Origin: Candidatus Daviesbacteria bacterium
Lineage (GTDB): Bacteria; Patescibacteriota; Microgenomatia; Daviesbacterales; UBA10151
NCBI GenBank assembly: GCA_028715175.1
Contig: JAQUSJ010000002.1
Span: 22,285-86,284 of the forward strand
Reading direction: 5' to 3'
DNA length: 64,000 nucleotides
A model generated the notes under the pieces. That model had not been told where the DNA came from. It did no database searches and worked only from the letters and a program-made list of their open reading frames with translations. The translations under genes and the position numbers were made by a program. Shown in pieces: positions 1 through 62,434 of the stretch. Within the stretch, counting starts at the first letter, position 1, and every line of letters starts with the position of its first letter.

Positions 1-2318
1 CTTTCTCCTTCATCTGAGCTTGCAACCCGGTAAGCTTTATTGTCACAATTTTTTGCAAATCCTCCGGAGAAAGCGGCTTAAATAAAACAACTTTATCAAA
101 ACGATTGATGAGCTCCGGCTTAAAAATTGTCAGCAATTCATTGTTAACTTGCTTATCGATTTCTTCCAAACTTTTTCCCAATTTCAAACCTTCTGCAATA
201 ATTAAACTACCGGCATTTGAGGTGGCAATAATAATGGTATTGGTAAAATCCACCGTCAGTCCGTTTGCATCAGTTAGCCTGCCATCCTCCAAAACTTGTA
301 AGAATAAAGTTAAAATTTTAGGATCTGCTTTTTCAAATTCATCCAAAAGCAACAAAGAATAGGGTCTTTGCCTTATAGCTTCTGTCAACTGCCCTTCCTC
401 TCCCGATCCGCCGATTAACCTGTTTACCGACTGCTGAGTTTGGTACTCCGACATATCAAACCGTACATATGCCCCCTCTGTTTTAAAATATATCCGGGCC
501 AAAGTTTTAGCCAATTCAGTTTTACCAACCCCGGTAGGGCCGACAAAAAGGAATGACCCGATTGGCCTGGCTTCTTCCCTAAGACCGGTAACAGACCGCC
601 TCAAAGTATCGGCTACAGCTTTAACTGCCGGCTCCTGGTCTATCATTCTTTCGTGAATTTCCTCTTCTAAATTCAACAACTTAGTCTTATCGGCATTGCC
701 AACTTCTGTCAAAGGCACTTTTACCCTTGAAGAAATAACCCTTCTGATAACTTCTTTTGTCACCCATTTATTAATAGATTGGGTCAGCGCCTCCTTTAAA
801 ACAGCAATAGCAGAATCAGGTAAAACCCGGTCATGAATTAATTTTTGGGAAAGCGCCACTGCAGTCTTAATGGCTATAAAAGTAACTTTCACTTTGTCTT
901 TTCTTTCAGCCTCTATAGCGCGGTATTCCAGAATGGCTAAAGTGTCTTGATCAGTGGCAGGAGAAAGTTCAATTTTTCTAAAAATCCTGGCAAAAGAACC
1001 ATTTTTTTCTAAAATCCGGCTGTAATTTCCCGCCTCTGTTGTACCGATAAACTGGAAAGTATCCGATTCCAAATATGGCTGCATCAGGGAATACAAATTT
1101 AAGACCCCGCCTGCCTCACCCATGCCCAATTCATGAATTTCTTCTATAGCAATAATGACATTTCCTGCAAATCCTACCTCTTCAAAAATCACTTTCACCC
1201 GGTCTGCCAAATCACCTTGCGACTTAATCCCTGATAAAAGTTTTGGGAGATCCAGCAAAACTATCCTTTTTGTGGCCAAAGCGCTTGGCGCATCTCCTAT
1301 GGCTATCTGTTTAGCTAAATGCCGAAGCGTTGTTGTTTTGCCGGAACCGGGAGCACCAACTAAGATAACATTCATGCCGCCGGTTTGTTGAGATAAAATA
1401 TTAACTATATCTTTCAGCGCGCCATTCTCCCGAATTAAATCAGGGAAAAATTTTGAAGCTGCCTGCTTTGTTAAATCCTCACCTACCAAATCCAAATTAG
1501 GCGTCGGCGCTCCTAACCATCCTCTGTTTATGCCTTTCAGATGATGAACAGTGAAATCTTCGTCCCAAATATATACCCGTCTCCAAATATTCTTTTTCTT
1601 TTCCAAATAGACCAGTGCCTTTATAAAATCATCGATCGTTAACTCTAACCTAGCTAAACTGGCATCGATATTGGGAATTTCCCCGAGGGTGGCTACAAAA
1701 AAATGGCGGGGGCCTAAATACAAACTTTCACTTTCTCTTCCGAGCTCATATGCTTTCTTTATTACCGTATTTATATCGGTTATTTCAAAAGAAGGCAGAC
1801 TATTAAATTGAATCTCCAGGTTCGACAGCAAATCTATAACTTCCCGGTCTGTAAGAAGCTTTTTAAAATTTAAGTCTTTCTTTTTTATTTTGGAAGCTTG
1901 CCAGAGATCTTCTTCCTGAACTTGCCAAATTTTCTTATGGGGGTGGGAAACTATATTTATCACAAAAAGCCCCAACCCGCTCAAAAATAAACATCTGCTT
2001 AAAATCTGCGGGGTATCAAAAACAGCCAACACAGGCAGGATCAACCAGTATCCGCCAATTGCAAGTAAAGCCATTGTGGCAATTAAAAAGGCAAACAGTC
2101 CAATCAAAATCCGCCCCACCCGAAAGATAAAACTCAAAATTCTACCAACAACTGATGTATCATGAAAAAGCGGGGTGAAGAGCAGTTTCCACATCAGCCC
2201 CACTGCTAAATCTTCTTCCAGAAGAAGTATTAAATTTTTCCATGTTCTAATAAAAAAAGCTATGCTTTCCGGATACCAGAATTTAAATATTTGGATTGGC
2301 GCTGATAAGTATTTCATA
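1..2318 (-). CDS. Clp-family AAA+ ATPase (ClpA/ClpC-like, two AAA+ modules) with an N-terminal transmembrane segment in place of a Clp_N domain. Partial: the C-terminus lies beyond the window start.
   Basis: Reverse-strand translation gives Walker A GAPGSGKTT and GPTGVGKTELAKT, plus the pre-AAA1 linker 'IVNILSQQTGGMNVILVGAP' that is typical of ClpA/B/C. Start is the ATG (cat) at 2316-2318. Not in the ORF track because no stop codon falls inside the window. Confidence 0.8.
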
Positions 2319-2320
2319 AT

Positions 2321-2390
2321 AGTCGTCAGCTTTCAGTCATCAGTCGTCAGACTTTTGTTTTAATCTGATAGCTGAAGACTAATAGCTATC
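2321..2390. repeat. heptamer-array hairpin element (TCAG family), copy 1
   Basis: 'agtcgtcagctttcagtcatcagtcgtcagact' - AT loop - 'ctgatagctgaagact...'. Confidence 0.8.
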
Positions 2391-5710: not shown

Positions 5711-6154
5711 TTACATTTTTAACTTGATTTCTTTTTGAATAACGAATCTTTCTTCCCAAAGCCTTACTAAAAAAAGAATTGGCAAAGATAAGATGCAAGC
5801 AAGGATTACTTTTGAAAACTCAAAAGAACTGTGATCTAATATCGAATTAGCGAACTGACTGATAGTTATAAGGAAAAAGGTAAGCGGTACGATAAGCAAT
5901 GGGTTGCCGGCCAGCCGGAGCTTCGATAAGATTTCTGTTACCTCAACCAAACTTAAGTATATTAAACTCTGAAAACCAATACTCGCCAGATTTAAATGCG
6001 AAGTAAAGATGCCAAAGAAAAAAGCAAGATAAAGATTTGCTGAGTCGGATTTTATATATGACCTGCATATTAATATAAGCAGCACTAGATCTATTGGAAG
6101 GATAGTTGTCTGCATAAATGATGCAATAATTAAAATAATGATTAAAGTTTTCAT
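5711..6154 (-). CDS. mreD: rod shape-determining protein MreD-like polytopic membrane protein
   Basis: 147-aa multi-TM ORF between mreC and mrdA; assigned by position and hydrophobicity. Confidence 0.5.
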   Translation of the reverse strand: MKTLIIILIIASFMQTTILPIDLVLLILICRSYIKSDSANLYLAFFFGIFTSHLNLASIGFQSLIYLSLVEVTEILSKLRLAGNPLLIVPLTFFLITISQFANSILDHSSFEFSKVILACILSLPILFLVRLWEERFVIQKEIKLKM

Positions 6155-6160
6155 AACGAA

Positions 6161-6222
6161 TAGTCGTCAGCTGTCAGCTTTCAGTCGTCAGACTTTTTAT
6201 TTTCTAATCTGATAGCTACTCT
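6161..6222. repeat. heptamer-array hairpin element, copy 2 (between mreC and mreD)
   Basis: 'tagtcgtcagctgtcagctttcagtcgtcagac' - loop - 'tctgatagctact'. Confidence 0.8.
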
Positions 6223-7004
6223 TGAATCACAAACACAAGTTCCAAATCCCTAATATCAAAAATCGGAGAAACTTTTGCCTGCTTAAAAACTTCATTTTCC
6301 CGCTCCAGCACTTCTGTGACTTTCCCTAAAATCAGTCCCCTGGGTAAAAAACCCTCCAATCCTTCCGAATAAACCAAATTCCCCTGAGCGATTTTTTCCT
6401 CATGCAGAATTTTATCCATTAGAATTGCTGTGCCGAATTGCCCAACCAATACCCCTTTTGCCTGACCATCTTTGTTTTGTGAAAATGCAGCCACTTTTGA
6501 ATCGGGATCTGTCAGAAGCTCCACATTTGAGGCCGAAGGCGAAACCAAAACTATCTTGCCTATGAAGCTGTCTTCAAAAACTACCGGCTGACCCACTTTC
6601 ACTCCGGATGAGGAACCCTTATCAATTTTTAAGTATCTGGAAAGCCCGATCAATCTTGCCGGCAATAAATTATAAGTACCTGGATCAAGGTATTTTTCTT
6701 GAGAAAGCTGGGCAGTAATTTCTGCAATATTTTTGCGCAAGTTAGCATTCTCCGAGAGTAGCTGCCCCACCTGTTCTTTTAAAGCTTTGTTTTCCTGACC
6801 CGCTTTGCGGGCCAAGAAAAGAAAATAAAATTGTTTGCCTATGTTCCTATTTGTATTATAAATCCCAAAAGAGATGGGGTTGGTAATATAAAACGCCAAC
6901 TGCTTTGGTAAGTTTAACAGATTGATTTTGTCTAAGATAAAAATTGTTAGACTTAAAAATAGCAGTATTAATAAAATTTTCAAGTCAGGGATAACCTTAC
7001 TCAC
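6216..7004 (-). CDS. mreC: rod shape-determining protein MreC
   Basis: N-terminal TM helix, coiled coil, and the MreC beta-domain ('VVFEDSFIGKIV', 'LLTDPDS'). Confidence 0.8.
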   Translation of the reverse strand: MSKVIPDLKILLILLFLSLTIFILDKINLLNLPKQLAFYITNPISFGIYNTNRNIGKQFYFLFLARKAGQENKALKEQVGQLLSENANLRKNIAEITAQLSQEKYLDPGTYNLLPARLIGLSRYLKIDKGSSSGVKVGQPVVFEDSFIGKIVLVSPSASNVELLTDPDSKVAAFSQNKDGQAKGVLVGQFGTAILMDKILHEEKIAQGNLVYSEGLEGFLPRGLILGKVTEVLERENEVFKQAKVSPIFDIRDLELVFVIQE

Positions 7005-12434: not shown

Positions 12435-14498
12435 ATGTTGGATAAAGTTATCTCTTATTCCTTTTATCTGCTATTTTTTCTTACCCCTCTTTTTTGGACA
12501 TCTTTCAATTACGAGCTTTTTGAATACAACAAGATGCTTTTAGTTTATGGCTTTACTGTCATTATTGTTGGTGCATGGATCCTTAAAATGATCAACGATC
12601 AACGATTAACGATCAAACACACTCCCTTGGATATTCCCCTTCTTTTATTTTTAGGTGCAAATATTCTTTCCACCATCTTTTCCATAGATCCCCACACCTC
12701 CATTTGGGGTTATTATTCAAGATCTAATGGCGGCCTCTTATCTTTAATCTCATATCTTCTATTATATTGGGCATTTGTTTCCAACATGGATTCCTCCAAA
12801 GTCAAAACCGTCCTCAAGTTTGGACTGGCTTCAGGTCTGATCATTTCTCTGTGGGCCATTTCAGAGCATTTCGGAGCATCTCCTTCTTGTCTGATTTTAC
12901 GGGGAGAGCTTAATGATGCCTGCTGGATACAAGATGTCCAAGCCCGGGTTTTTGCCAGCTTAGGTCAACCAAACTGGCTGGCAGCATATCTTGCCATGCT
13001 AATTTTCCCTACCTTATATTTTTTCTTAACCGCTTCTTCCCGCATACTACATACTACATACTACATACTACTTGTGACATATTATTTGGCTTTTACTTTT
13101 ACCTATTCCAGAGGACCAACATTAGGGCTGATCGGAGGAATGATAGTATTTTTGATTTGCTACACTTTCTGTCATCCTGAGGGAGCAAAGCGACCGAAAG
13201 ATATAATAATTAGATTCTTCGCTTCGCTCAGAATGACAAAGCTGGCGGGTGTTCTTGCGTCTTTCCTACTAATCAACCTGCTTTTTGGATCAGCCTTAAC
13301 CAGCTTCAGGCTAGTTTCCAAATTTGCAGCACCGGCAAGACCCGAGATCTCCCTTCCAACAGCTCCCTCGGGTACCCAACTGGAAAACGGTGGCACCGAA
13401 TCAGGCCAAATCAGATTTATTGTATGGCGCGGGGCTTTGGATATTTTTTTAAATTATCCAATTTTTGGTTCAGGCCTGGAAACCTTTGCCTATTCCTATT
13501 ATAAGTATCGTCCCATCGAGCATAATCTCACCTCCGAATGGGATTTCTTATACAACAAGGCTCATAATGAGTATCTTAACTATTTAGCCACTACTGGAAT
13601 TGTTGGGTTTGGAACATATCTGTTGGTTATTGGTACGTTCGTTGTATTTTGTATTAAGTATTTTGTATTAAGTATAAAAAATTACAAGATACATAATACA
13701 GGATACATACTACTTACTACCTGCTTGCTTGCAAGCTACATCTCCTACCTCGTCTACAACTTTTTCCTCTTTTCTGTAGTCATAATTGCCGTCTTTTTCT
13801 ATCTTTTCCCGGCCCTTGTCTTTGTGATCACTGAATCTACCAAACCGCTTAAGATTCCTTCTGCCTTCCATTTTCTATCTTCCATCTTCCGGACTATTTA
13901 TCATCGGCCTTTGTATACAAAAATTACTAAAGGTATCGTGGTTGTCCTTACTGTATATTTCCTATATTCCATCTTCCAGCTCTGGTGGGCAGATACCCTT
14001 TTTGCTGAAGGTCAAAGAGTCTCTGAAGCAGGCAATCCCGGCAGGGCATACAACCTGCTTTCCAGTGCTTCACAGTTAAACAAAAATGAGCCTTTCTACA
14101 AATCTGAGCTTGGTTTTGCCGCAGCTCAAGCTGCAGTAGCTTTACAAGATATAGATGCCACTCTTTCTGCAGAGTTAAAAAACGAAGCTATACTACAAAC
14201 AGAAGAAGTTTTGCGATCAAGCCCTAAAAATGTTTCATTTCTTCGTGCGGCAGTCAGAACCTATTTCGAGCTTTCCAGTTTTAATCAGACCTATGCAGAT
14301 AAAACTCTGCAAACGCTGGATTCGGCAATTAAGTTGGCTCCAACCGACCCGAAACTCTATTACAATAAAGCTCTTGTTTTGGATACAATGGGGAGAAAAG
14401 ATGAAGAGATTAGTGCTTTACAAAAGGCTATACAATTAAAACCAAATTATCTGGAGGCCTTTGCCCAGCTAAAAGAAGCAACTGCTTCGGCAAAATAG
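12435..14498 (+). CDS. O-antigen ligase-like polytopic membrane protein with C-terminal TPR repeats
   Basis: About 12 TM helices followed by TPR-like 'ALxLxP' repeats; it contains an in-frame palindromic element and two heptamer arrays (listed under repeats). Confidence 0.55.
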   Translation: MLDKVISYSFYLLFFLTPLFWTSFNYELFEYNKMLLVYGFTVIIVGAWILKMINDQRLTIKHTPLDIPLLLFLGANILSTIFSIDPHTSIWGYYSRSNGGLLSLISYLLLYWAFVSNMDSSKVKTVLKFGLASGLIISLWAISEHFGASPSCLILRGELNDACWIQDVQARVFASLGQPNWLAAYLAMLIFPTLYFFLTASSRILHTTYYILLVTYYLAFTFTYSRGPTLGLIGGMIVFLICYTFCHPEGAKRPKDIIIRFFASLRMTKLAGVLASFLLINLLFGSALTSFRLVSKFAAPARPEISLPTAPSGTQLENGGTESGQIRFIVWRGALDIFLNYPIFGSGLETFAYSYYKYRPIEHNLTSEWDFLYNKAHNEYLNYLATTGIVGFGTYLLVIGTFVVFCIKYFVLSIKNYKIHNTGYILLTTCLLASYISYLVYNFFLFSVVIIAVFFYLFPALVFVITESTKPLKIPSAFHFLSSIFRTIYHRPLYTKITKGIVVVLTVYFLYSIFQLWWADTLFAEGQRVSEAGNPGRAYNLLSSASQLNKNEPFYKSELGFAAAQAAVALQDIDATLSAELKNEAILQTEEVLRSSPKNVSFLRAAVRTYFELSSFNQTYADKTLQTLDSAIKLAPTDPKLYYNKALVLDTMGRKDEEISALQKAIQLKPNYLEAFAQLKEATASAK
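12591..12618 (+). repeat. (ATCAACG)x4 heptanucleotide tandem array inside a CDS
   Basis: 'atcaacgatcaacgattaacgatcaaac'. Confidence 0.85.
13044..13071 (+). repeat. (ATACTAC)x4 heptanucleotide tandem array inside a CDS
   Basis: 'atactacatactacatactacatactac'. Confidence 0.9.
13170..13238. repeat. ~69-bp palindromic MITE-like element (GTCATCCTGAG...CTCAGAATGACA) inserted in-frame in the O-antigen-ligase-like gene
   Basis: Arms TGTCATCCTGAG / CTCAGAATGACA; the ORF continues through it ('CHPEGAKRPKDIIIRFFASLRMTK'). Confidence 0.7.
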
Positions 14499-14607
14499 CC
14501 TTCAGCTATCAGTCATCAGTCGTCAGATAATTGCAATTTAAGTCTGAAAGCTGACAGCTGAGAGCGAAGCCGCGCCAAAGGCGGGCGAAGCGATACTGAC
14601 GACTACT
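14498..14607. repeat. heptamer-array hairpin element, copy 3, with a nested GCGAAGC-type insert (14562-14595)
   Basis: 'ccttcagctatcagtcatcagtcgtcagat' ... 'agtctgaaagctgacagctga' + insert + 'ctgacgactactATG'. Confidence 0.8.
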
Positions 14608-14871
14608 ATGAAATCGATTGCCAAAGCCATTGCTGAAACAAAATTCAAGGACCGGCCAAAAAATATCTCCCGTGAATTCCAGATGTACGGAGTTTATCTG
14701 GCTGAAAGTTTAGGAGATACTAAACATTATTCGCTTTATATCAAACTGGCAAAAGAAATAGACCGCAAAATCCTGGAAGAAGCCTTAAATTTTACCAAAG
14801 ACTATTATGGTGCCAGATCCAAAGCTAAAATCTTCATGTGGAAATTACAACAGCATGACAAACTCGTCTAA
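14608..14871 (+). CDS. hypothetical protein (87 aa)
   Basis: ORF whose ATG directly follows the hairpin-element motif ...GACGACTACT. Confidence 0.35.
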   Translation: MKSIAKAIAETKFKDRPKNISREFQMYGVYLAESLGDTKHYSLYIKLAKEIDRKILEEALNFTKDYYGARSKAKIFMWKLQQHDKLV

Positions 14872-14950
14872 ACCCTGAACGCGAACGACAAGAATCCCAA
14901 GTTCTCTGTCAAATTTGGCAAGTTGGCTTAACTCTGATAGAATTCCTGGT

Positions 14951-15541
14951 ATGGAAGTAGTTAAAGCGCCGGATGCAAAACTCCGAGTCAAAACCAAACC
15001 TGTTAAAAAAGTAGATCAAGCATTAAAAAACACCTTAAAGGAGATGATCAAGCTGACCAAAACCTTTAAAGATCCTGAGGGGGTGGGGCTGGCTGCCACC
15101 CAGATTGGCAGGAACGAAAGTTACTTTGTGGGCAGACTGCACGATTCCAAAAAATCCGCCAGCTGGCGGACTCCTTCAAAGCCTGGTCAAAGAAAAGACA
15201 GATGGGCAGGCTATGATAAGGAATTTTCTGCAATTATTAACCCTAAAATTTTATCCTATGGGAAGCACACCAGAACCTATTTTGAAGGCTGCCTGTCTAT
15301 TCCTGATGTCTGGGGACAAGTTAAAAGGTATACCAACATTAAAATTTCCTACCAAAACAGTGATGGCGAGCAAGTGACAAGAACTCTAAAAGGAATACCG
15401 GCCTGGATATTCCAGCATGAAACAGATCATCTAAATGGAATTTTATTTTCCGACAGAGTTTTGGAACAAAAAGGCAAATTTTATCGTTTTACAGGTAAAG
15501 ATAAAACAGGCACAGATTTATTTGAGGAAATAACAATATAG
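14951..15541 (+). CDS. def: peptide deformylase; start placed at the Met before 'PDAKLR', whereas the ORF-track start is 14915
   Basis: 'GVGLAATQIG', 'EGCLSIPD', 'QHETDHLNG' (the three PDF motifs); it carries an inserted segment that includes a 16-bp palindrome. Confidence 0.8.
   Translation: MEVVKAPDAKLRVKTKPVKKVDQALKNTLKEMIKLTKTFKDPEGVGLAATQIGRNESYFVGRLHDSKKSASWRTPSKPGQRKDRWAGYDKEFSAIINPKILSYGKHTRTYFEGCLSIPDVWGQVKRYTNIKISYQNSDGEQVTRTLKGIPAWIFQHETDHLNGILFSDRVLEQKGKFYRFTGKDKTGTDLFEEITI
15155..15170. repeat. 16-bp perfect palindrome TCCGCCAGCTGGCGGA in-frame in def
   Basis: Encodes 'SASWRT' within an insertion relative to canonical PDF. Confidence 0.75.
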
Positions 15542-15622
15542 CTTTCAGCTATCAGTCATCAGTCGTCAGACTGATATAATTTAAAAGTCTGAAAGCTGAT
15601 GGCTGAAGACTGACGACTATTT
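15541..15622. repeat. heptamer-array hairpin element, copy 4 (between def and fmt)
   Basis: 'gctttcagctatcagtcatcagtcgtcagac' - 'tgatataatttaaa' - 'agtctgaaagctgatggctgaagactgacgactattt' then ATG. Confidence 0.85.
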
Positions 15623-17161: not shown

Positions 17162-17596
17162 AGCCAAGCCAGGCACATACCATCTTGACAAATTTAGCTT
17201 TTAATACTACTATTAAATTATCCTAAAAGGACATTTAGTAGATGGCCTGAAGGACTGCCCAAAAGGCATCCCTACCTAGCACGTTTAAAGCCAATATATT
17301 TTTCTTCACTGATTTGATACTTTACGGGAGTTCAAAGTGTGCTCCATAGCCTTGTGCGACGGACACCAGAACACCCACCTTAGATTTTCTGAGGAGAAAA
17401 TTTGGCTGACGACTATAGTAGGGAGAAATTATTTTTGAGCATTAGCGAAAAAATAGTCTTCCGAAAGAAGTATATTTTTTTGTTTTGGACAAATTTCGAC
17501 ATACCTCTATTCGCAGATTCAATAATTCTGCGAATTTGTTCATTCTACCTTTCATCTCGTAATCAATATAAAAAATCGCTATAATATACTCGCATG

Positions 17597-42119: not shown

Positions 42120-43466
42120 ATGTCTCAAGATGAAGCTGTGCCACAGGAACACCCCAAAGAACATCACGATCATGCAATTTTAAAATTCCCGGAAGGATTT
42201 TTGTGGGGCACAGCCACTTCTGCTCATCAGGTAGAGGGAAATAATATTCACAGCGACTGGTGGGAGTGGGAACAAACTCATCAACCGCCCCATTTGCGCT
42301 CAGGAAAGAGTTGTGACCAGTACCATTTATATGAACAGGATTTTGAACTGGCCAAAGAGTTAAATCATAATGCTCACCGCTTATCTATTGAATGGTCCAG
42401 GATTGAGCCTATTGAAGGGCAATTTGATACAGCTGAAATTGAACACTACAAAAAAGTCTTAAAGGCTTTAAAAGACCGCAAACTAACAGTCATGTTAACT
42501 CTCTGGCACTGGACTTTACCGAAGTGGGTGGCTGATAAAGGCGGTTGGGAAAATGGGGCAACTGTTAAATATTTTGAAAGGTTTGTCAGAAGAATCGTTC
42601 CCGAGATCTCGGAATTCGTTGATTTATGGGTAACCTTGAATGAACCTGGAGTGTATATTTATGAAACATACATTGAAAGGATTTGGCCTCACTCAAAAAA
42701 AAGCTGGGTTGGACAAGTCAAAGCTTATTTAAACCTGGTTTCTGCTCACAAAAGAGTCTACAAATACCTGCACTCAAGCTTCCCGGCCGGTAAACCGGTT
42801 GGCGTTGCCAATAATATACTTTCTTTTGAAGTCTATCATAAACATTCCATCGTCGAACAAATGGCAGTTGCTTTAAACGATCTTTTTGTTAACCATTTGT
42901 TTTATTTCTTAACCCGGGGCAGCCATGATTTCCTGGGAATTAATTACTATTTTAATATCCGTCTCAAAGGCAATAATTTGATATCTCAGAATGTGGGTCT
43001 GACACAGCAAACTCATGAAGTCTCTGATTTAGGTTGGGAGATTCATCCCGAAGGCATCTTTGAAGTTTTAACCGACCTGTCTGATGATTTACCTATCTAC
43101 ATTACCGAGTGTGGAATTGCTTCCACCAATGACGACAGAAGAAATCGCTTTTTAATTTCTTATTTGCAAGAAGTAGCCAGAGCCATTAAAGCCGGAGTTA
43201 ATGTCAGAGGATTCTTTTACTGGTCGCTGCTGGATAATTTTGAATGGCATTTGGGCTTTGAACCCAGGTTTGGGCTGGTGGAAATAGATTATACCAACTT
43301 AGAGCGCCATATCCGACCTTCAGCGCTGGTTTATACGGACATTATTCAACACAACGGCATTCCCCACTCCCTCCTCCGGTTCATCGGGCACACAGTCCAG
43401 GCAGAAGAAGTTTTGGAAAAAAGACAAAAAGAGATAGAAAAGGAGATAGAAAAGAAAAACAAATAG
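42120..43466 (+). CDS. glycoside hydrolase family 1 beta-glucosidase
   Basis: 'FLWGTATSAHQVEG' GH1 N-terminal signature; 'TLNEP' acid/base and 'YITECG' nucleophile. Confidence 0.85.
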   Translation: MSQDEAVPQEHPKEHHDHAILKFPEGFLWGTATSAHQVEGNNIHSDWWEWEQTHQPPHLRSGKSCDQYHLYEQDFELAKELNHNAHRLSIEWSRIEPIEGQFDTAEIEHYKKVLKALKDRKLTVMLTLWHWTLPKWVADKGGWENGATVKYFERFVRRIVPEISEFVDLWVTLNEPGVYIYETYIERIWPHSKKSWVGQVKAYLNLVSAHKRVYKYLHSSFPAGKPVGVANNILSFEVYHKHSIVEQMAVALNDLFVNHLFYFLTRGSHDFLGINYYFNIRLKGNNLISQNVGLTQQTHEVSDLGWEIHPEGIFEVLTDLSDDLPIYITECGIASTNDDRRNRFLISYLQEVARAIKAGVNVRGFFYWSLLDNFEWHLGFEPRFGLVEIDYTNLERHIRPSALVYTDIIQHNGIPHSLLRFIGHTVQAEEVLEKRQKEIEKEIEKKNK

Positions 43467-43530
43467 CTTTCAGTCGTCAGTCGTCAGATTTTAAGTCTGA
43501 CAGCTGAAAGCTGATAGCTGACGACTATTT
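43467..43530. repeat. heptamer-array hairpin element, copy 5
   Basis: 'ctttcagtcgtcagtcgtcagat' - 'tttaa' - 'gtctgacagctgaaagctgatagctgacgactattt' then ATG. Confidence 0.85.
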
Positions 43531-45100: not shown

Positions 45101-47389
45101 ATGCGGCTAAATATCTATAATTTTCTGTCCCAAAAGCAAAAAAATATGCCCACAGGGCCAAAGAAAAAGAATCATTTAAAGCCTTCCCCAAAAAATCTTA
45201 CTCTCCTTTTGGTCAAAATTATCCTGATTAAAATAGGTGATATGCCGCTTCGCTTGCTTCAATGTACAATGTACAATGTACAATGTACAATTCGAATCTT
45301 TCCAAAAATTATACATTCTACATTTTCAATTCTGCATTTTGCGCGGCTTCACCGCGCAAGAGGCCGGCCTAAGAAACTACGCTTCTCCAAAAAATCCAAA
45401 ATCATATTTGTTTTTTCAGTCTTTGTGGTCTTTATTATTTCGTATACTATCTTTCTCTTGACCGCAGCTTACCAGCTCCCGACACCTACCAGGCTTATCT
45501 ATTCTAACGAACCTCTCACCACTGAATTTTATGACAGGAACGGTAGTTTGCTTTACAGACTCTATGAGGGCAAAAACCGCACTCTGATTAAACTTCCGGA
45601 AGTCCCGAAAAATTTAATCCAAGCCACCATTGCTATTGAAGATCAAAATTTCTATCACCACATCGGTATTGACCCGTTAGCCATTATCCGTGCCTTTTAT
45701 CAAAATCTCAAAAATGGTAGCTACGAGGGAGCCTCCACCATTACCCAACAACTTATCAAAAATTCCCTGCTCACTCCTGAGCGAACCTATACCCGTAAAT
45801 TGCGCGAGATTATTTTGGCTTTATGGACCGAGAGAATCTATTCAAAAGATCAAATTTTACAAATGTATTTTAATGAAGCCCCATACGGAGGAACTAATAT
45901 CGGAATTGCAGCAGCTGCTCAGACTTATTTTGGCAAATCCCCATCTGATCTTAATTTGGCAGAAAGCGCTTTCTTGGCCGGACTGCCTGCATCTCCCACC
46001 CAGTTTTCTCCTTATGGATCAGCGCCTGAGTTGGCTAAACTCCGGCAAAAAGAGGTTTTAGGCAGGATGGTTAAAGAGAAATATATCACGGAAGAAGAGT
46101 CAGCAGCAGCTTTTGCAGAAAATCTCAATCTCAAACCCCTCAGCAACGATATCCATGCTCCACATTTTGTAATGTATGTGCGGGATTTACTCTCCCAAAA
46201 GTATGGCCAGAGAGTTGTCTCTCAGGGAGGTCTTAAAATTTATACCACCCTAGATCTTGATTTACAAGAAAAGGTGGAACAAATTGTCAAGGAAGAGGTG
46301 GAAAAATTAGCTTCTTTGAATGTCCAAAATGGAGCAGCCATGATTACTGATGTGGGAACTAACCAGATTTTGGCTATGGTTGGCTCAAAAGATTACCATG
46401 AGCCCAAATACGGCAATTTTAATGTAACACTCTCAGCACGCCAACCAGGCTCCTCCATCAAAGTCATCACTTATGCTACGGCTTTTAAAAAAGGTTTCAG
46501 TCCGGGAAATACTATTTTAGACGCTCCTGTCACATTCAAAGACGGCCCTAGAAGCTATTCTCCCATCAACTATGACAATGCATTTCACGGACCGGTTTCT
46601 ATCCGTACAGCAATTGGGTCATCTTACAATGTACCTGCAGTTAAAATGCTCTCCACTGTGGGTGTAGATGAAATGATCAAAACTGCCAAAGATTTAGGAA
46701 TTACCACCTTCAATGATCCTGCTAGATTCGGCCTGTCTTTAACTTTGGGCGGCGGAGAAATTAAAATGATTGATATGATGTCTGTTTACGATTCTTTGGC
46801 AAATTTGGGAATTAGAAAATCTCCGACTCCGTTTTTGAAAGTAACTGATTCAAGCGGCAATGTTTTGGAAGAATATAACAATTCAGGAAAAAGGGTCTTA
46901 CAATCGGAAATTGCCTATCTTCTCACTGACATTTTAAAGGATAACAAAGCCAGAACCCCTGCCTTCGGACCTTCCTCCCTTCTTCAAATTCCAGGTTTTG
47001 AGGTGGCGGTTAAAACCGGCACTTCTGACAATAAAAGGGATAATTGGACGTTTGGCTACACCCCGAAATTTGTGGTAGGTGTGTGGGTGGGTAATCCTGA
47101 TAATTCGCCTATGAATCCTGCCTTAACTTCCGGCATCACGGGCGCCGCTCCAATTTGGAATAAGATAATGCATACGCTTTTGGATGAAACTCAACCTCTT
47201 GCATTCCAAAAACCAGCTGGATTACTCGAGGCCACCATTGATGGAAGAAAAGATTTAACTCTGGCAGGATTAATCCCCAAAGCCATGGTGAGGGTAACCA
47301 GAAATGAAGATAAAATTACTTTTTCTGACAGCTTCTCATCCTATGCTACATCTTCTGCCCAGGCTAATCCAACACAACCCAACCTCTAA
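45101..47389 (+). CDS. class A penicillin-binding protein (bifunctional GT51 transglycosylase / transpeptidase); the true start is probably at 45242 or 45269 rather than 45101
   Basis: 'EDQNFYHHIGID', 'TITQQLIKN' (GT51); 'SSIK', 'SYN', 'KTGTS' (transpeptidase). Basic cytoplasmic tail plus a TM helix follows the (AATGTAC)4 array. Confidence 0.8.
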   Translation: MRLNIYNFLSQKQKNMPTGPKKKNHLKPSPKNLTLLLVKIILIKIGDMPLRLLQCTMYNVQCTIRIFPKIIHSTFSILHFARLHRARGRPKKLRFSKKSKIIFVFSVFVVFIISYTIFLLTAAYQLPTPTRLIYSNEPLTTEFYDRNGSLLYRLYEGKNRTLIKLPEVPKNLIQATIAIEDQNFYHHIGIDPLAIIRAFYQNLKNGSYEGASTITQQLIKNSLLTPERTYTRKLREIILALWTERIYSKDQILQMYFNEAPYGGTNIGIAAAAQTYFGKSPSDLNLAESAFLAGLPASPTQFSPYGSAPELAKLRQKEVLGRMVKEKYITEEESAAAFAENLNLKPLSNDIHAPHFVMYVRDLLSQKYGQRVVSQGGLKIYTTLDLDLQEKVEQIVKEEVEKLASLNVQNGAAMITDVGTNQILAMVGSKDYHEPKYGNFNVTLSARQPGSSIKVITYATAFKKGFSPGNTILDAPVTFKDGPRSYSPINYDNAFHGPVSIRTAIGSSYNVPAVKMLSTVGVDEMIKTAKDLGITTFNDPARFGLSLTLGGGEIKMIDMMSVYDSLANLGIRKSPTPFLKVTDSSGNVLEEYNNSGKRVLQSEIAYLLTDILKDNKARTPAFGPSSLLQIPGFEVAVKTGTSDNKRDNWTFGYTPKFVVGVWVGNPDNSPMNPALTSGITGAAPIWNKIMHTLLDETQPLAFQKPAGLLEATIDGRKDLTLAGLIPKAMVRVTRNEDKITFSDSFSSYATSSAQANPTQPNL
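45261..45290 (+). repeat. (AATGTAC)x4.3 heptanucleotide tandem array at the 5' end of the class A PBP gene; each unit carries an ATG
   Basis: 'aatgtacaatgtacaatgtacaatgtacaa'. Confidence 0.9.
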
Positions 47390-51076: not shown

Positions 51077-51110
51077 CGCTTGCCAACTTACTATTATAAA
51101 TATACACTAA

Positions 51111-51203
51111 TAGTAGCTATCAGTCATCAGCTCTCAGCTGTCAGACTTAATATCTGATGACTGATGACTGATGACTGATGACTGATGACTGATGACTGAT
51201 AAA
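51111..51203. repeat. heptamer-array hairpin element, copy 6; its right arm is expanded into a (CTGATGA)x6.4 tandem array
   Basis: 'tagtagctatcagtcatcagctctcagctgtcagac' - 'ttaatat' - 'ctgatgactgatgactgatgactgatgactgatgactgat'. Confidence 0.8.
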
Positions 51204-52073
51204 ATGTTTTCAACTTTTAAACAAAAATTATTTTTAGGAATATATATTTTTCTTCTGCTAACGATCCCTGTCGGATCATATCTTGTTTCACAATACCAAA
51301 CTATTCAAAGCAGCGCAAAGGAGCAAAAAAACACCAAATCAATAGCCAGGGTCACACCAAAACCTACAACTTCACCCTCCAAAGAACTGCTAAGCGCTTC
51401 TCAAACCAGCGTCTCTCAGGGCGATTCCGCCTCGCCTGCCCCGTCTCCCACCGCTGATCCGACAATAGCCACCTCGTACGGCCCTACGCTATCTTTCAAA
51501 GCGACTTTGGAAGGCAGTCCCAAAGATAATCAAACAACCAGGATGTTTATAGGGATTGCGGAAGGAGCGCTCTCATCAAACCCCAAGTTCCTGCTTAGTT
51601 TTAGCGTGAATTTACCTGCTTCCGGGGAATACGGCAATATCTCCCTGGCCGGTTTGAATTCCGGAACACAATATACGGCACTCTTAAAGGGCGCTTCCCA
51701 GATTGCCGTCTCTTCTGTATTTACTATGTCACCTTCGGTTTCTACCTTAAACAACAATGAGCCTTTAAACCTAATCAGCGGAGATTTAAATGATGATAAT
51801 GTTATAAACAGCGCTGATTATTCTATTGCTCAAAAAGCGCTTGGTTCAACCTCAAAATCTTCCAACTGGAATGCCAATATCGATTTAAATAAAGATGGAG
51901 TAATAAATGCTTTTGATTTAGGCTTTATTACCAAAAACATGGGCCAAACCGGCGCTTCAGGCGCCTGGACCTCCCCTTTGCCTCAAGGCGCAACACCTTC
52001 TGCAAATCTTACTTCCCCTTCTATTGGTGGACCAGAAAGCTCCGGTGGCTATTGGATCTGGGTACCAAAGTAA
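51204..52073 (+). CDS. secreted dockerin-repeat protein (the ORF-track start at 51192 lies inside the heptamer array)
   Basis: Signal/TM 'LFLGIYIFLLLTIPVGS'; dockerin repeats 'DLNDDNVINSAD' and 'DLNKDGVINAFD'. Confidence 0.6.
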   Translation: MFSTFKQKLFLGIYIFLLLTIPVGSYLVSQYQTIQSSAKEQKNTKSIARVTPKPTTSPSKELLSASQTSVSQGDSASPAPSPTADPTIATSYGPTLSFKATLEGSPKDNQTTRMFIGIAEGALSSNPKFLLSFSVNLPASGEYGNISLAGLNSGTQYTALLKGASQIAVSSVFTMSPSVSTLNNNEPLNLISGDLNDDNVINSADYSIAQKALGSTSKSSNWNANIDLNKDGVINAFDLGFITKNMGQTGASGAWTSPLPQGATPSANLTSPSIGGPESSGGYWIWVPK

Positions 52074-52757: not shown

Positions 52758-52822
52758 AAGATAAAATACTTTTTGCTTAAGACAGTGAGCATATACATAA
52801 GACTCACCGAGGCGAATTAAAT

Positions 52823-52899
52823 TAGCTATCAGTCTTCAGCTATCAGCTTTCAGACCTAAAAATTGTCTGACGACTGATGACTGACAGCTGACGACTATT
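52823..52899. repeat. heptamer-array hairpin element, copy 7 (upstream of rplJ); followed at 52900-52923 by the small hairpin CCTCG-TTTAA-CGAGG and a T-run
   Basis: 'tagctatcagtcttcagctatcagctttcagac' - loop - 'tctgacgactgatgactgacagctgacgactatt'. Confidence 0.8.
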
Positions 52900-52923: not shown

Positions 52924-53448
52924 ATGGCTAAAACAAGACAACAAAAAGAAGATTCAGTTGCAAAATTATCAGAACAGCTAAGCAAGGCCAAGTCTGTAGT
53001 TTTTGCAGACTATAAAGGTTTGAGCATGAAACAATTATCCAATCTTCGGGATCAACTTCGTGAAGTAAACGGCGAATTTACTATTACCAAAAATACTCTA
53101 CTTCAACGCGCCCTACCAACTACCAACTACCAACTACCAACTGAATTAGAGGGTCCAACAGCCACACTTTTTGCATATGATGACGAAATTTCTCCTATCA
53201 AAATATTAGTCAAGACCTTAAAAGATGTTGCTTTGGGCAAAATAAAAAGCGGTTTCTTTGGAGGTACTGCATTAGATGAAGGAAAAATACTTCAACTTGC
53301 CGCTCTCCCTACAAAGTTAGAACTAAAAGGCCAGATCGTCGGAATCCTGGCTGCTCCTTTGCAAGGCATGGTTTCTGTACTTAATGGAAATTTACGTAAT
53401 CTAGTTTATGCATTAAATCAAATCAAAATATCGAAGGGAGGTGAATAA
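52924..53448 (+). CDS. rplJ: 50S ribosomal protein L10
   Basis: 'KSVVFADYKGLSMKQLSNLR'; contains the (CTACCAA)4 array. Confidence 0.85.
   Translation: MAKTRQQKEDSVAKLSEQLSKAKSVVFADYKGLSMKQLSNLRDQLREVNGEFTITKNTLLQRALPTTNYQLPTELEGPTATLFAYDDEISPIKILVKTLKDVALGKIKSGFFGGTALDEGKILQLAALPTKLELKGQIVGILAAPLQGMVSVLNGNLRNLVYALNQIKISKGGE
53113..53140 (+). repeat. (CTACCAA)x4 heptanucleotide tandem array inside rplJ
   Basis: 'ctaccaactaccaactaccaactaccaa' encoding 'PTTNYQLPT'. Confidence 0.9.
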
Positions 53449-53449
53449 A

Positions 53450-53521
53450 TAGCTATCAGTCATCAGCTTTCAGCTATCAGACTTAAAAATCTGAAGACTG
53501 ACGACTGAAGACTGAAAGCTT
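53450..53521. repeat. heptamer-array hairpin element, copy 8 (between rplJ and rplL)
   Basis: 'atagctatcagtcatcagctttcagctatcagac' - 'ttaaaaat' - 'ctgaagactgacgactgaagactgaaagct'. Confidence 0.85.
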
Positions 53522-53527
53522 ATTAAT

Positions 53528-54109
53528 ATGGCAGATGATCAAAAACAAGATCAAGTAGTAGAAGAGACAGCGAAGTCTGAAACTGATAAAACCACCCCGG
53601 ACGGTGGTAGCGTGAGCGAAGCGAAGGCTGACTCCTCCGAGGTGAATGCAGCAGAAGCTCCAAAAGAGGCTGAACCTGTAAAAGAGCCAAAAGTAGAAGA
53701 GTCTAAAAAAGCTTCTAAACCAGTTTCAGCTAATCTGGAAAAAATCATAGAACAGATTGAAAAACTGTCTGTTTTAGAGTTGGCTGATTTAGTTCATGCG
53801 CTGGAAGACAGATTTGGTGTTTCGGCTTCAGCTCCGGTAGCAGCTGCAGCCGCAGGCGCAGGTCCAGCAGCAACAGGTGAGCCGGCAGAGGAAAAAACAA
53901 CATTTAATGTTGTCCTCTCGGGTGCAGGAGCAAATAAAATTGCAGTTATTAAAGCTGTCAGAGAACTCGTCCAAACTTTGGGCCTTAAAGAAGCCAAAGA
54001 TTTGGTAGAAGCAGCTCCAAAACCTGTTTTGGAAGGAGTTAATAAAGCCACAGCTGAAGAAGCTAAAACTAAATTAACAGCCGCAGGAGCAACAGTTGAA
54101 TTACAATAA
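53528..54109 (+). CDS. rplL: 50S ribosomal protein L7/L12 with an unusual ~60-aa N-terminal extension
   Basis: '[19 protein letters not shown]' and the CTD '[25 protein letters not shown]'. Confidence 0.85.
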
Positions 54110-58294: not shown

Positions 58295-58339
58295 AAAACC
58301 TGATCACAAGATACACTAAATGGATCAATAGCTATCAGT

Positions 58340-62019: not shown

Positions 62020-62022
62020 AAA

Positions 62023-62090
62023 ATAGCTTTCAGTCTTCAGCTATCAGCTTTCAGACTTTTAATAAGACCTGAAAGCATTGCGCTGATCTG
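62023..62090. repeat. heptamer-array hairpin element, copy 9 (its left arm supplies the stop codon of the IVS-protein gene)
   Basis: 'atagctttcagtcttcagctatcagctttcagac' - loop - 'cctgaaagcattgcgctgatctgg'. Confidence 0.7.
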
Positions 62091-62402
62091 GTCAACCTCG
62101 CTAATAACTGCATTAATCGTTTTCTCGTCTGCCATCTCAAGACTTATTGCAATTTCTAGTCCGGCAATTACTTCATATGCTGATCTTTGTGCCATTCTCA
62201 AAAATCTCATAAATTCTGGGTCTGATCCGGAACCCGATCCTTCTGCGATATTCAAACAAATACTCACTGCCGCTCTTCTTATTTGGTCTACCAGACCATA
62301 TTTCTCTTCTTGCGGAAACTTAGAAGTAATTTTGTAAACAAGCGATACAAACTGAATTGATCGCTGCCACACTGTAAGTTTTCTGAATTTATGTGTATTC
62401 AT
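62037..62402 (-). CDS. four-helix-bundle protein (23S rRNA-IVS-protein family)
   Basis: 'LTVWQRSIQFVSLVYKITSKFPQEEKYGLVDQIRRAAVSICLNIAEG' family signature; both gene ends lie inside heptamer-hairpin repeat arms. Confidence 0.7.
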   Translation of the reverse strand: MNTHKFRKLTVWQRSIQFVSLVYKITSKFPQEEKYGLVDQIRRAAVSICLNIAEGSGSGSDPEFMRFLRMAQRSAYEVIAGLEIAISLEMADEKTINAVISEVDQISAMLSGLIKSLKADS

Positions 62403-62434
62403 GTCTGACGACTGATGACTGATGACTATTAAAC
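62403..62434. repeat. single arm of the heptamer-array element (AGTCATCAGTCATCAGTCGTCAGAC) between argS and the IVS-protein gene
   Basis: Reverse complement of 'gtctgacgactgatgactgatgact'. Confidence 0.7.

Follow-up and report, generated by a model that had tools for sequence, protein, structure and literature searches.

Results

Heptamer-built hairpins occupy gene junctions in a Daviesbacteria genome

We analysed a 64-kb window (39.7% G+C, ∼87% coding) from a metagenome-assembled genome (MAG) of Candidatus Daviesbacteria, in which boundaries between genes are occupied by short inverted-repeat elements made of phased heptamers. The window, meaning this whole stretch of DNA, contains eight gene-less hairpins (E1 to E8), one cassette enclosing a PF05635 gene, and two solo ends (Table 1). 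Among the genes next to these elements, the identities of def, fmt, rplJ, rplL and mreC are backed by Pfam. The original prediction had listed ten copies and two degenerate remnants. All were found at the places given. The entries at 62023 and 62403, however, belong together as left and right arm of a single 409-bp element, and the remnants proved to be solo ends, CTGACGACTA and ATAGCTATCAG.

The family stands out clearly from background. The string TCAG(N3)TCAG(N3)TCAG occurs 32 times in the window, clustered at the ten places listed earlier, compared with 0.00 expected from shuffled sequences. The terminal motif CTGACGACTA, allowing at most one mismatch, occurs 18 times (1.4 expected), and ATAGCTNTCAG 14 times (3.9 expected). 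In a search of the window with Rfam covariance models only tRNAs passed the gathering score, and the elements gave nothing above sub-threshold miRNA-hairpin noise, with no hit by E-value threshold either.

All copies follow a common plan, (A)ATAG - [YYN-TCAG]x3-4 - A - AT-rich loop - T - [CTGA-NRR]x3-7 - CTATT(T), with spacer triplets of two classes, CTN and TCN. The proposal of one family with heptamer-array arms is borne out, and heptamer number changes by whole units. Whole-unit indels separate E4 from its orthologue in another Daviesbacteria MAG (L122; loci fetched from other genomes carry L numbers), and the predicted expansion of one arm of E6 is a perfect (CTGATGA)x6.7 array at 51154-51200. 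The loops, previously put at 8-15 nt, measure 9-20 nt. The eight gene-less copies are 61-114 bp each, with termini G-YYN-TCAG / CTGA-NRR-C; they are short, multicopy and bounded by terminal inverted repeats, as MITEs (miniature inverted-repeat transposable elements) are. The dinucleotide TA is present at both ends of all nine copies; TA is self-complementary and also fits the inverted termini TAG...CTA.

Every copy is intergenic, lies between protein-coding genes and fills its junction almost exactly; about one in eight junctions in the window is filled in this way. The window contains no rRNA, and no copy is located at helix 25 or 45 of 23S rRNA. The TAG of the left end serves as stop codon of the gene ending there in E1, E2, E3, E4 and E5, in agreement with the overlap noted earlier. 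At the other end, a start codon follows within 0-4 nt in E2, E3, E4, E5, E6, E8 and the cassette. An ATG immediately after the element had been claimed for five genes; this is correct for fmt, the EamA-like transporter gene, the open reading frame (ORF) starting at 14608 and rplL, and the rplJ ATG lies 24 nt beyond E7. TAG is carried at both element ends, each of the three reading frames meets a TGA within three CTGA heptamers, and a short unpaired U-rich tail separates the element from the next ATG. At the junction described as mreC/mreD, mreC was confirmed; the putative mreD (5711-6154), for which neither Pfam nor NCBIfam gave a hit, is named from its position only.

Scored against the cassette, the gene-less copies lie both ways round relative to their neighbour genes. 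A rule that they always lie in sense orientation was rejected, as E1 (and weakly E8) is antisense to its neighbours and E6 and E7 are on the minus strand. Owing to its palindromic ends, an element shows the TAG...CTATT features whichever way round it lies.

Table 1. Elements of the window and associated features. Fold, folding energy in kcal/mol and z score; orientation, score against the cassette.
Feature	Position	Strand	Fold	Orientation	Context
E1, gene-less hairpin, 72 nt	2318..2389	+	-24.6, z -6.0	75 vs 51, + strand	abuts TAG stop (minus strand) of ORF 2386-2739; antisense to this neighbour gene
E2, truncated element	6159..6219	.	z -1.8 (weak)	ambiguous	between mreC (6216-7004, minus) and ORF 5711-6154 (putative mreD); a single heptamer left in one arm
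E3, gene-less	14494..14607	+			between Wzy_C/TPR gene and conserved 87-aa ORF; Wzy TAG stop inside element end
Mini-hairpin CCGCGCCAAAGGCGGG, 16 nt, GC-rich	14570..14585	+			nested in E3 right arm
E4, gene-less	15537..15622	+	-35.9, z -6.0		exact fill of the def/fmt junction: def TAG in left end, fmt ATG after right end
Solo right-end remnant CTGACGACTA	17406..17415	+			motif scan
E5, gene-less	43462..43530	+	-28.9, z -5.4		between GH1 glycosidase gene and EamA-like transporter gene
E6	51110..51203	-	z -5.1	88 vs 48	divergent intergenic region; expanded arm reaches ATG at 51204
E7	52821..52899	-	z -3.9	99 vs 44, cassette-like on minus strand	divergent region between DUF5674 gene and rplJ; 24 nt upstream of rplJ ATG
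E8	53448..53527	. (weakly minus)	z -5.4		between rplJ stop and rplL ATG
Solo left-end remnant ATAGCTATCAG	58328..58338	+			between mreB and PEGA-domain gene; motif scan
Full cassette, 409 bp	62022..62430	-			left arm 62403-62430, PF05635 gene, right arm 62022-62060; between argS and metallophosphatase gene
PF05635/TIGR02436 'four helix bundle' gene (S23p, 23S rRNA intervening sequence protein), 121 aa	62037..62402	-			Pfam E 5e-37; NCBIfam TIGR02436

The gene-bearing copy is an S23p cassette from which the gene-less copies may derive

In the cassette, gene and arms are interlocked. The left arm ends TCAGAC-ATG, the TCAG heptamers stopping 2 nt short of the ATG, and the C-terminus L-K-A-D-S-stop of the protein is encoded by right-arm heptamers (CTG AAA GCT GAY AGC TGA). 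Beside the right arm, the loops of gene-less copies retain ...ATTTAAAAGT, in agreement with the final codons of the gene (...ATTAAAAGT-CTGAAAG); the gene-less copies are therefore read as internal-deletion derivatives. Three features of the cassette are those of S23p cassettes of the 23S rRNA intervening sequence (IVS) type: an enclosed PF05635 ORF, terminal inverted repeats able to form a stem, and heptamers of variable number next to the ORF start.

The encoded protein shares 100% identity with a Daviesbacteria protein at NCBI and matches the structure of Xanthomonas XCC0516 (2GSC, five chains) with E 1e-20. It also gives a weak match to Avd, a protein of diversity-generating retroelements (DGRs). 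Avd binds nucleic acid and reverse transcriptase. Comparison of the PF05635 genes of the window and of L122, which sit at different loci, gave dN 0.043, dS ∼1.07 and dN/dS ∼0.04. Such strong purifying selection indicates a functional protein. The high identity of the arms between lineages (below) indicates that they are either constrained at the nucleotide level or recently spread.

Relatives carry empty, filled and remnant sites

Locus L122 is syntenic with the window over 12.4-17.2 kb. At the junction of E3 it holds a PF05635 gene inside the same arms, identical at 36/37 positions on the left and 22/22 on the right (58/59 in total), between flanking genes that are 73-75% identical. This junction, between the Wzy_C/TPR gene and the 87-aa ORF, was found in four states: empty, with an ATGA or TAATG stop/start overlap (L227, L234); filled with the full PF05635 cassette (L122); filled with the gene-less hairpin E3 (window); and holding a 34-nt remnant (L230, L231). 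The def/fmt junction is empty in L227 (stop/start overlap TAATG), L228, L230 and L231 and holds an unrelated insert in L234. Of the 21 close relatives fetched, 12 have no insert at the rplJ/rplL junction, which there has the form GGGAGGTGTTTAAATT-ATG; the final codons of rplJ contain a conserved GGAGG that is 5-9 nt from the ATG of rplL. At the site of E8, L135 carries an element (L135 1438-1520) identical at 74/75 positions, loop and unpaired spacers included, and the flanking rplJ and rplL are 72% and 69% identical in DNA.

Empty sites were thus found at all three junctions tested, and the elements display the insertion polymorphism of MITEs. The copies insert at gene boundaries that originally had overlapping or abutting stop and start codons in a compact genome.

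Other inserts share these places. An unrelated palindromic family (GTCATCCYGR... / GTCATTGCGAGG...) that brings its own stop codon occupies the rplJ/rplL, rplJ-upstream and def/fmt sites in L130, L132, L139, L140, L147 and L234. Heptamer-array hairpins with other cores (TATATCG/CGATAAA, i.e. ATCG; AAGGGTN; ACAGG) lie near rplJ in L131, L133, L135, L141 and L145, several of them also with ATAG...CTATT ends, and at L122 19930-20400 ACTTAAG-type arrays flank a PF05635 paralogue.

The 87-aa ORF (14608-14871) is assigned to no family, has 2568 homologues and is 80-90% identical across Daviesbacteria; its Gottesmanbacteria orthologue (L219 3391-3660) also directly follows a PF05635 cassette, in that case with octamer arms. 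The Wzy/87-aa junction may be an insertion hotspot. We rejected the 87-aa ORF as a partner of the cassette, as it encodes a conserved Patescibacteria protein of housekeeping type that is present at empty sites too.

The copies fold into long imperfect hairpins

Folding each copy, the check proposed with the original prediction, gave long imperfect hairpins for six of the eight gene-less copies, with dG of -24 to -36 kcal/mol and z of -3.9 to -6.0; folding was poorer for E2, which is truncated, and for E3, which is interrupted. The clean 30-bp stem that had been described was not recovered: only the TCAG/CTGA cores pair systematically, and the spacer triplets are mostly unpaired. It had been argued that such a stem would occlude initiation unless processed. 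This argument is weaker than stated, since Shine-Dalgarno (SD) sequences are rare in this genome (7 of 73 crude gene starts). An RNase III (rnc) signature motif was not found in the 64 kb or in the fetched loci, which says nothing about the remaining genome.

PF05635 genes of many bacteria are flanked by heptamer or octamer arrays

To relate the cassette to PF05635 genes elsewhere, we used 26 such genes picked by protein similarity alone, from viral contigs, plasmids, Xanthomonadales genomes and other lineages of the candidate phyla radiation (CPR). Arrays of period 7 or 8 are present on at least one flank of 22 genes and on both flanks of 13, compared with one of 102 control segments (Fisher p = 1e-20). 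The hosts include Cyanobacteria, Xanthomonas, Azospirillum, Riemerella, Gemmatimonadota, other CPR lineages and viral contigs, and inspection of the flanks indicated that paired arrays are mostly inverted to each other. The arm units vary by lineage: TCGGC-type, GGGAGTA, TCAGAAT, AAGGGAA and GGTTTAA, and octamers such as GACAGTAA and CTCCTGCC.

Individual loci illustrate the association. The PF05635 gene at accB/accC of Xanthomonas is bracketed by GGGAATC arms, and an Omnitrophota gene has TCAG arms. A Nostoc gene has GGGAGTA/CCCTACT arms, and 4 kb from it the heptamer recurs as an inverted pair that encloses no gene; in 50 kb of a Nostoc edaphicum plasmid, five of the eight period-7 arrays are GGGAGT(A/G), the arm unit of the resident PF05635 gene, a gene-less inverted pair among them. 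PF05635 genes are found inside conserved operons (L221-L226; L241, L243, L251) at accB/accC throughout Xanthomonas and Dyella, and also in cas6/cas4 (plasmids of Pseudanabaena and Anabaena 90) and cmr2/cmr3 (Picosynechococcus). A one-to-one rule linking protein subfamily to arm was rejected: the arms of L219 are GACAGTAA octamers and those of L125 and L217 are TCAG heptamers, at similar identity of the proteins to that of the window (57-59%).

The reverse approach, a scan for TAG-YYN-TCAG x3 in one genome per species, returned at least 120 stretches. The matches listed include loci of Acidobacteriota, Bacteroidota, Planctomycetota, Omnitrophota, Cyanobacteriota, Chloroflexota, Gemmatimonadota, CPR and others; among them, 47 of 116 arrays have an inverted partner at most 80 nt away, and many lie beside ribosomal-protein genes, hfq or SUI1. 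Apart from the Coxiella IVS, our search of the accessible literature found no paper in which PF05635 genes are tied to heptamer arrays, and the cross-phylum association appears not to have been described before.

Further features of the window

The mini-hairpin in the right arm of E3 is bracketed by the direct repeat CGAAG (14565-14569 and 14586-14590). The def/fmt element of L122 reads GCGAAGCGATA and is insert-free at the corresponding position; the mini-hairpin resembles a second, still smaller insertion. A tandem 12-mer, (AAAAGGAGATAG)x2.4, occupies 43426-43454, where the GH1 gene has its 3' end shortly ahead of E5. The 193-aa rplL product (53528-54109) has an N-terminal extension of ∼70 aa before the L12 dimerisation domain, and its MADDQ... 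start is conserved in relatives. Positions 1392-2317 (∼930 nt) contain no ORF of at least 60 aa on either strand, which is unusual for a compact genome, and have no Rfam match.

Discussion

The hairpins as miniatures of an S23p cassette

We consider it probable that the hairpins are MITE-like, gene-less members of a family of IVS-type S23p selfish cassettes, residing at operon junctions in mRNA. The full-length form would be a promoter-less PF05635 gene bracketed by inverted phased heptamers (TCAG-YYN / NRR-CTGA) with TA-G...C-TA ends, and the body plan of the cassette is the same as that of ORF-bearing 23S rRNA IVSs. Internal deletion of the cassette would have produced the gene-less copies, which would then have spread; their occurrence in both orientations fits transposed miniature elements. 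Insertion at gene boundaries would be tolerated because the elements supply stop codons and fold away: a borrowed TAG stop, TGA in all frames, a U-rich tail and a hairpin that keeps the signals of the flanks close together may jointly achieve this. From their architectural likeness to the rRNA IVSs and to the hmw hairpin of Haemophilus influenzae, the transcribed hairpins are probably substrates of RNase III, whose cut would split the operon transcript at the junction. At rplJ/rplL, where E8, in the window and in L135, puts ∼80 nt between the conserved GGAGG at the rplJ 3' end and the rplL start, folding could return the displaced GGAGG to near the AUG. Phage T4 gene 38 is a known precedent for folding that restores the proximity of SD and AUG.

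The original prediction, which had offered RNase III processing or mRNA stabilisation as explanations, is supported in part: simple terminators are not what the elements are, their arms act as arrays, and RNase III processing is plausible by homology. Its account lacked the insertional nature of the elements, their link to the PF05635 cassette and their occurrence in both orientations.

Several observations weigh against our interpretation. No transposase, integrase or REP-associated tyrosine transposase (RAYT) gene was seen in or beside any cassette, so we infer mobility from the insertion polymorphism only. MITEs derive from a transposase-encoding element, whereas the longer relative here encodes only PF05635, which has no known transposase fold. 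A TA target duplication is indistinguishable from a palindromic TAG...CTA terminus. Descent of the hairpins from the cassette is itself deduced, and the reverse order, in which the gene inserted into a pre-existing hairpin, is possible. The link is strong from PF05635 gene to array and weak from array to gene: among the matches listed, 2 of about 116 TCAG arrays adjoin a PF05635 gene, and most lie far from any.

The arms are also not those of a conventional RNA stem. In-register spacers are less complementary than shuffled ones (Watson-Crick pairs 16-22% vs 46%); no covariation between arms was detected, the variable third spacer position being at random expectation in Daviesbacteria and in other phyla; and neither G-U wobble nor a folding bias of the sense strand was found, sense and antisense folding equally well. 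With helices of 4-6 bp between internal loops, the stems are mediocre substrates for RNase III. Furthermore, arms and even loops are 97-99% identical across lineages whose flanks are 70-75% identical and whose PF05635 genes have a dS of ∼1. Conservation of this kind is unlike that of passive junk. It suggests that the sequence itself is under selection or that it spread recently.

Alternative explanations

These last properties suggest a different role for the heptamers. As a tentative alternative, which we regard as a minority possibility, the phased heptamers may be binding sites of a PF05635 pentamer, one heptamer per subunit with four to five per arm, in a manner resembling the binding of phased triplets by TRAP. 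The dispersed hairpins would then be cis-targets of the protein, as DNA or RNA, for mobilisation, protection or regulation, and hairpin formation and RNase III cleavage would be secondary. The systematic conservation and pairing of phased tetranucleotide cores between non-complementary spacers would be expected of such sites, as would the preservation of arms at 97-100% identity where synonymous sites are saturated beside a protein with dN/dS of ∼0.04. Dispersed arrays share the arm heptamer of the resident PF05635 gene in three genomes (TCAG in Daviesbacteria, GGGAATC in Xanthomonas when taken with Rehm 2015, and GGGAGTA on the Nostoc edaphicum plasmid). A pentamer agrees with the five chains of 2GSC and with the description of Xanthomonas S23p as a homopentameric toroid (PMC4990558), and the weak resemblance to Avd points in the same direction. 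However, similar proteins have unlike arms, as in L219 compared with L125 and L217; one L122 paralogue is free of arrays, the arrays beside certain other PF05635 genes are direct, not inverted, and the S23p of Coxiella is apparently untranslated (PMC4990558).

We think it unlikely that the hairpins are host-beneficial cis-regulatory RNAs, such as RNase III sites that uncouple operons, stabilisers of mRNA or SD-independent translation signals, to which the cassette is linked by history only. Their position directly upstream of start codons, those of the essential genes fmt and rplL included, would suit such a function, and so would the near-identity of E8 and the L135 element between flanks of ∼70% identity. 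Parallels exist elsewhere: CTGA-type heptamers lie just before starts in Beggiatoaceae, ribosomal-protein operons included (PMC4679880), arrays in other phyla adjoin ribosomal-protein genes, hfq and SUI1, and in Haemophilus influenzae a hairpin of this kind can give higher expression when cleaved by RNase III (PMC12721329). Against a benefit to the host, most close relatives are insert-free at these junctions, where their stop and start codons still overlap or are SD-coupled, and in other relatives the sites have been taken by insert families of unrelated sequence. Moreover, the elements lie in both orientations, lack covariation and have flanking genes without a functional theme.

It is very improbable that the arrays are immobile simple-sequence repeats (SSRs) made in place by polymerase slippage. 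Heptamer number does vary, as in E6 and between E4 and L122; heptamer SSRs are over-represented in many bacteria, according to the citation of Mrazek 2007 in PMC4679880; and some coding sequences of the window contain perfect heptamer arrays too. Slippage cannot, however, make shared ends, two spacer classes, an inverted partner and a loop with the last codons of a gene, and it leaves unexplained why the same arms bracket a conserved gene; such a composite architecture at nine unrelated loci disfavours it. As for the coding arrays, (CATACTA)x4.1 (12590-12616) and (GATCAAC)x3.9 (13043-13071) lie in the Wzy_C/TPR ORF and (CAATGTA)x4.6 (45260-45291) in ORF 45101-47389. In rplJ, (CTACCAA)x4.3 (53113-53142) encodes LPTTNYQLPT, and L137 and L144 are shorter there by exactly seven residues (three heptamers).

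It is likewise very improbable that the elements are intrinsic terminators, attenuators or promoters, simple terminators having been discounted in the original prediction too: stable hairpins followed by CUAUUU and TATAAT-like hexamers in some loops (e.g., E4) might suggest them, but terminator and promoter scans flagged none of the elements and gave total counts equal to shuffle expectation, there is no U-tract, the stems are GC-poor and interrupted, and copies reside inside def-fmt and rplJ-rplL, as a PF05635 gene does inside accB-accC of Xanthomonas.

Relation to known systems

A close counterpart of the S23p cassette is the IVS of 23S rRNA. That of Coxiella burnetii is a selfish element with an S23p ORF and a 28-bp stem of terminal inverted repeats in which RNase III cuts; two or three GACAGAT heptamers, variable between strains, directly precede its ATG (PMC4990558). 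The cassette and the IVSs of Leptospira and Coxiella both have a PF05635/S23p ORF in a long terminal inverted repeat and variable heptamers before the ATG, and both are regarded as selfish. Gene-less short IVSs exist too, of the Salmonella type. The copies in the window differ in lying between protein-coding genes rather than at helix 25 or 45, in numbering nine in 64 kb and in having the heptamer TCAG-YYN. In addition, S23p is decaying in Coxiella and under strong purifying selection in Daviesbacteria, and cutting by RNase III is experimental for Coxiella and predicted for the window.

Repetitive extragenic palindromes (REPs) and the bacterial interspersed mosaic elements (BIMEs) that the original prediction had invoked are likewise dispersed extragenic palindromes inside operons, able to stabilise mRNA. 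REPs, however, are 20-40 nt long, with a GTAG-type head and a cognate Y1 transposase (RAYT); the elements of the window are 61-114 nt long with another head motif, and no RAYT/Y1 transposase is annotated in the window or the fetched loci, so that a REP/BIME-like identity was abandoned. Also comparable are the Correia elements of Neisseria, which are MITEs of 60-150 bp with terminal inverted repeats and TA ends, present in many copies near genes, co-transcribed and insertion-polymorphic. Correia hairpins are reported RNase III substrates, and their arms are not heptamer arrays. The longer relative of the window elements differs further in encoding a four-helix-bundle protein, not a transposase.

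Three systems share the heptamers. In the 5' untranslated region of H. influenzae hmw1A an (ATCTTTC)n array forms the left arm of a long hairpin upstream of the start codon; it is cleaved by RNase III, and expression as well as change of repeat number depends on both the hairpin and the enzyme (PMC12721329). This is a single phase-variation locus, not dispersed, whose right arm is a G-rich tract in place of an inverted array. The TAACTGA arrays of marine Beggiatoaceae, Cyanobacteria and Bacteroidetes end just before starts, including those of ribosomal-protein operons, and no mechanism was found for them (MacGregor 2015, PMC4679880). They resemble the window elements, whose right arms stop 0-5 nt short of an ATG, in having CTGA-containing sense arrays zero to a few nt before SD-less starts and a patchy spread across phyla; they differ in being almost only direct (one inverted case) with a fixed unit, where the window has CTGA-NRR with an inverted partner, and no link to PF05635 or to hairpins was drawn. 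Finally, GGGAATC is enriched in intergenic DNA of Xanthomonas, often as convergent inverted pairs, with GGGGAYT as the counterpart in Nostoc (Rehm 2015, PMC4692102). These heptamers, like the cyanobacterial STRR sequences, are lineage-specific intergenic arrays, and GGGAATC is the exact arm unit of the S23p gene at accB/accC of Xanthomonas; they were read as G-quadruplex-forming SSRs and tied neither to a gene cassette nor to insertion polymorphism.

Implications

A bolder and still doubtful proposal is that PF05635/S23p pentamers and phased heptamer or octamer arrays constitute one widespread selfish system of protein plus cis-repeat with its own miniatures, which would underlie 23S IVSs, STRR, GGGAATC, TAACTGA and the CPR hairpins; the protein would read one heptamer per subunit and drive the spread or maintenance of the arrays. 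The window offers a compact, sequence-defined set of cassette, miniatures and empty sites, and a selfish element inside essential operons (def-fmt and rplJ-rplL, with accB-accC in Xanthomonas) that does not break them. In CPR genomes the elements affect gene calling, through borrowed stops and false short ORFs, and the inference of operons. Three puzzles, the function of S23p, the origin of rRNA IVSs and the lineage-specific intergenic heptamer arrays, are joined here as one testable question, and the link to the PF05635 cassette may explain the heptamer arrays of many bacterial phyla.

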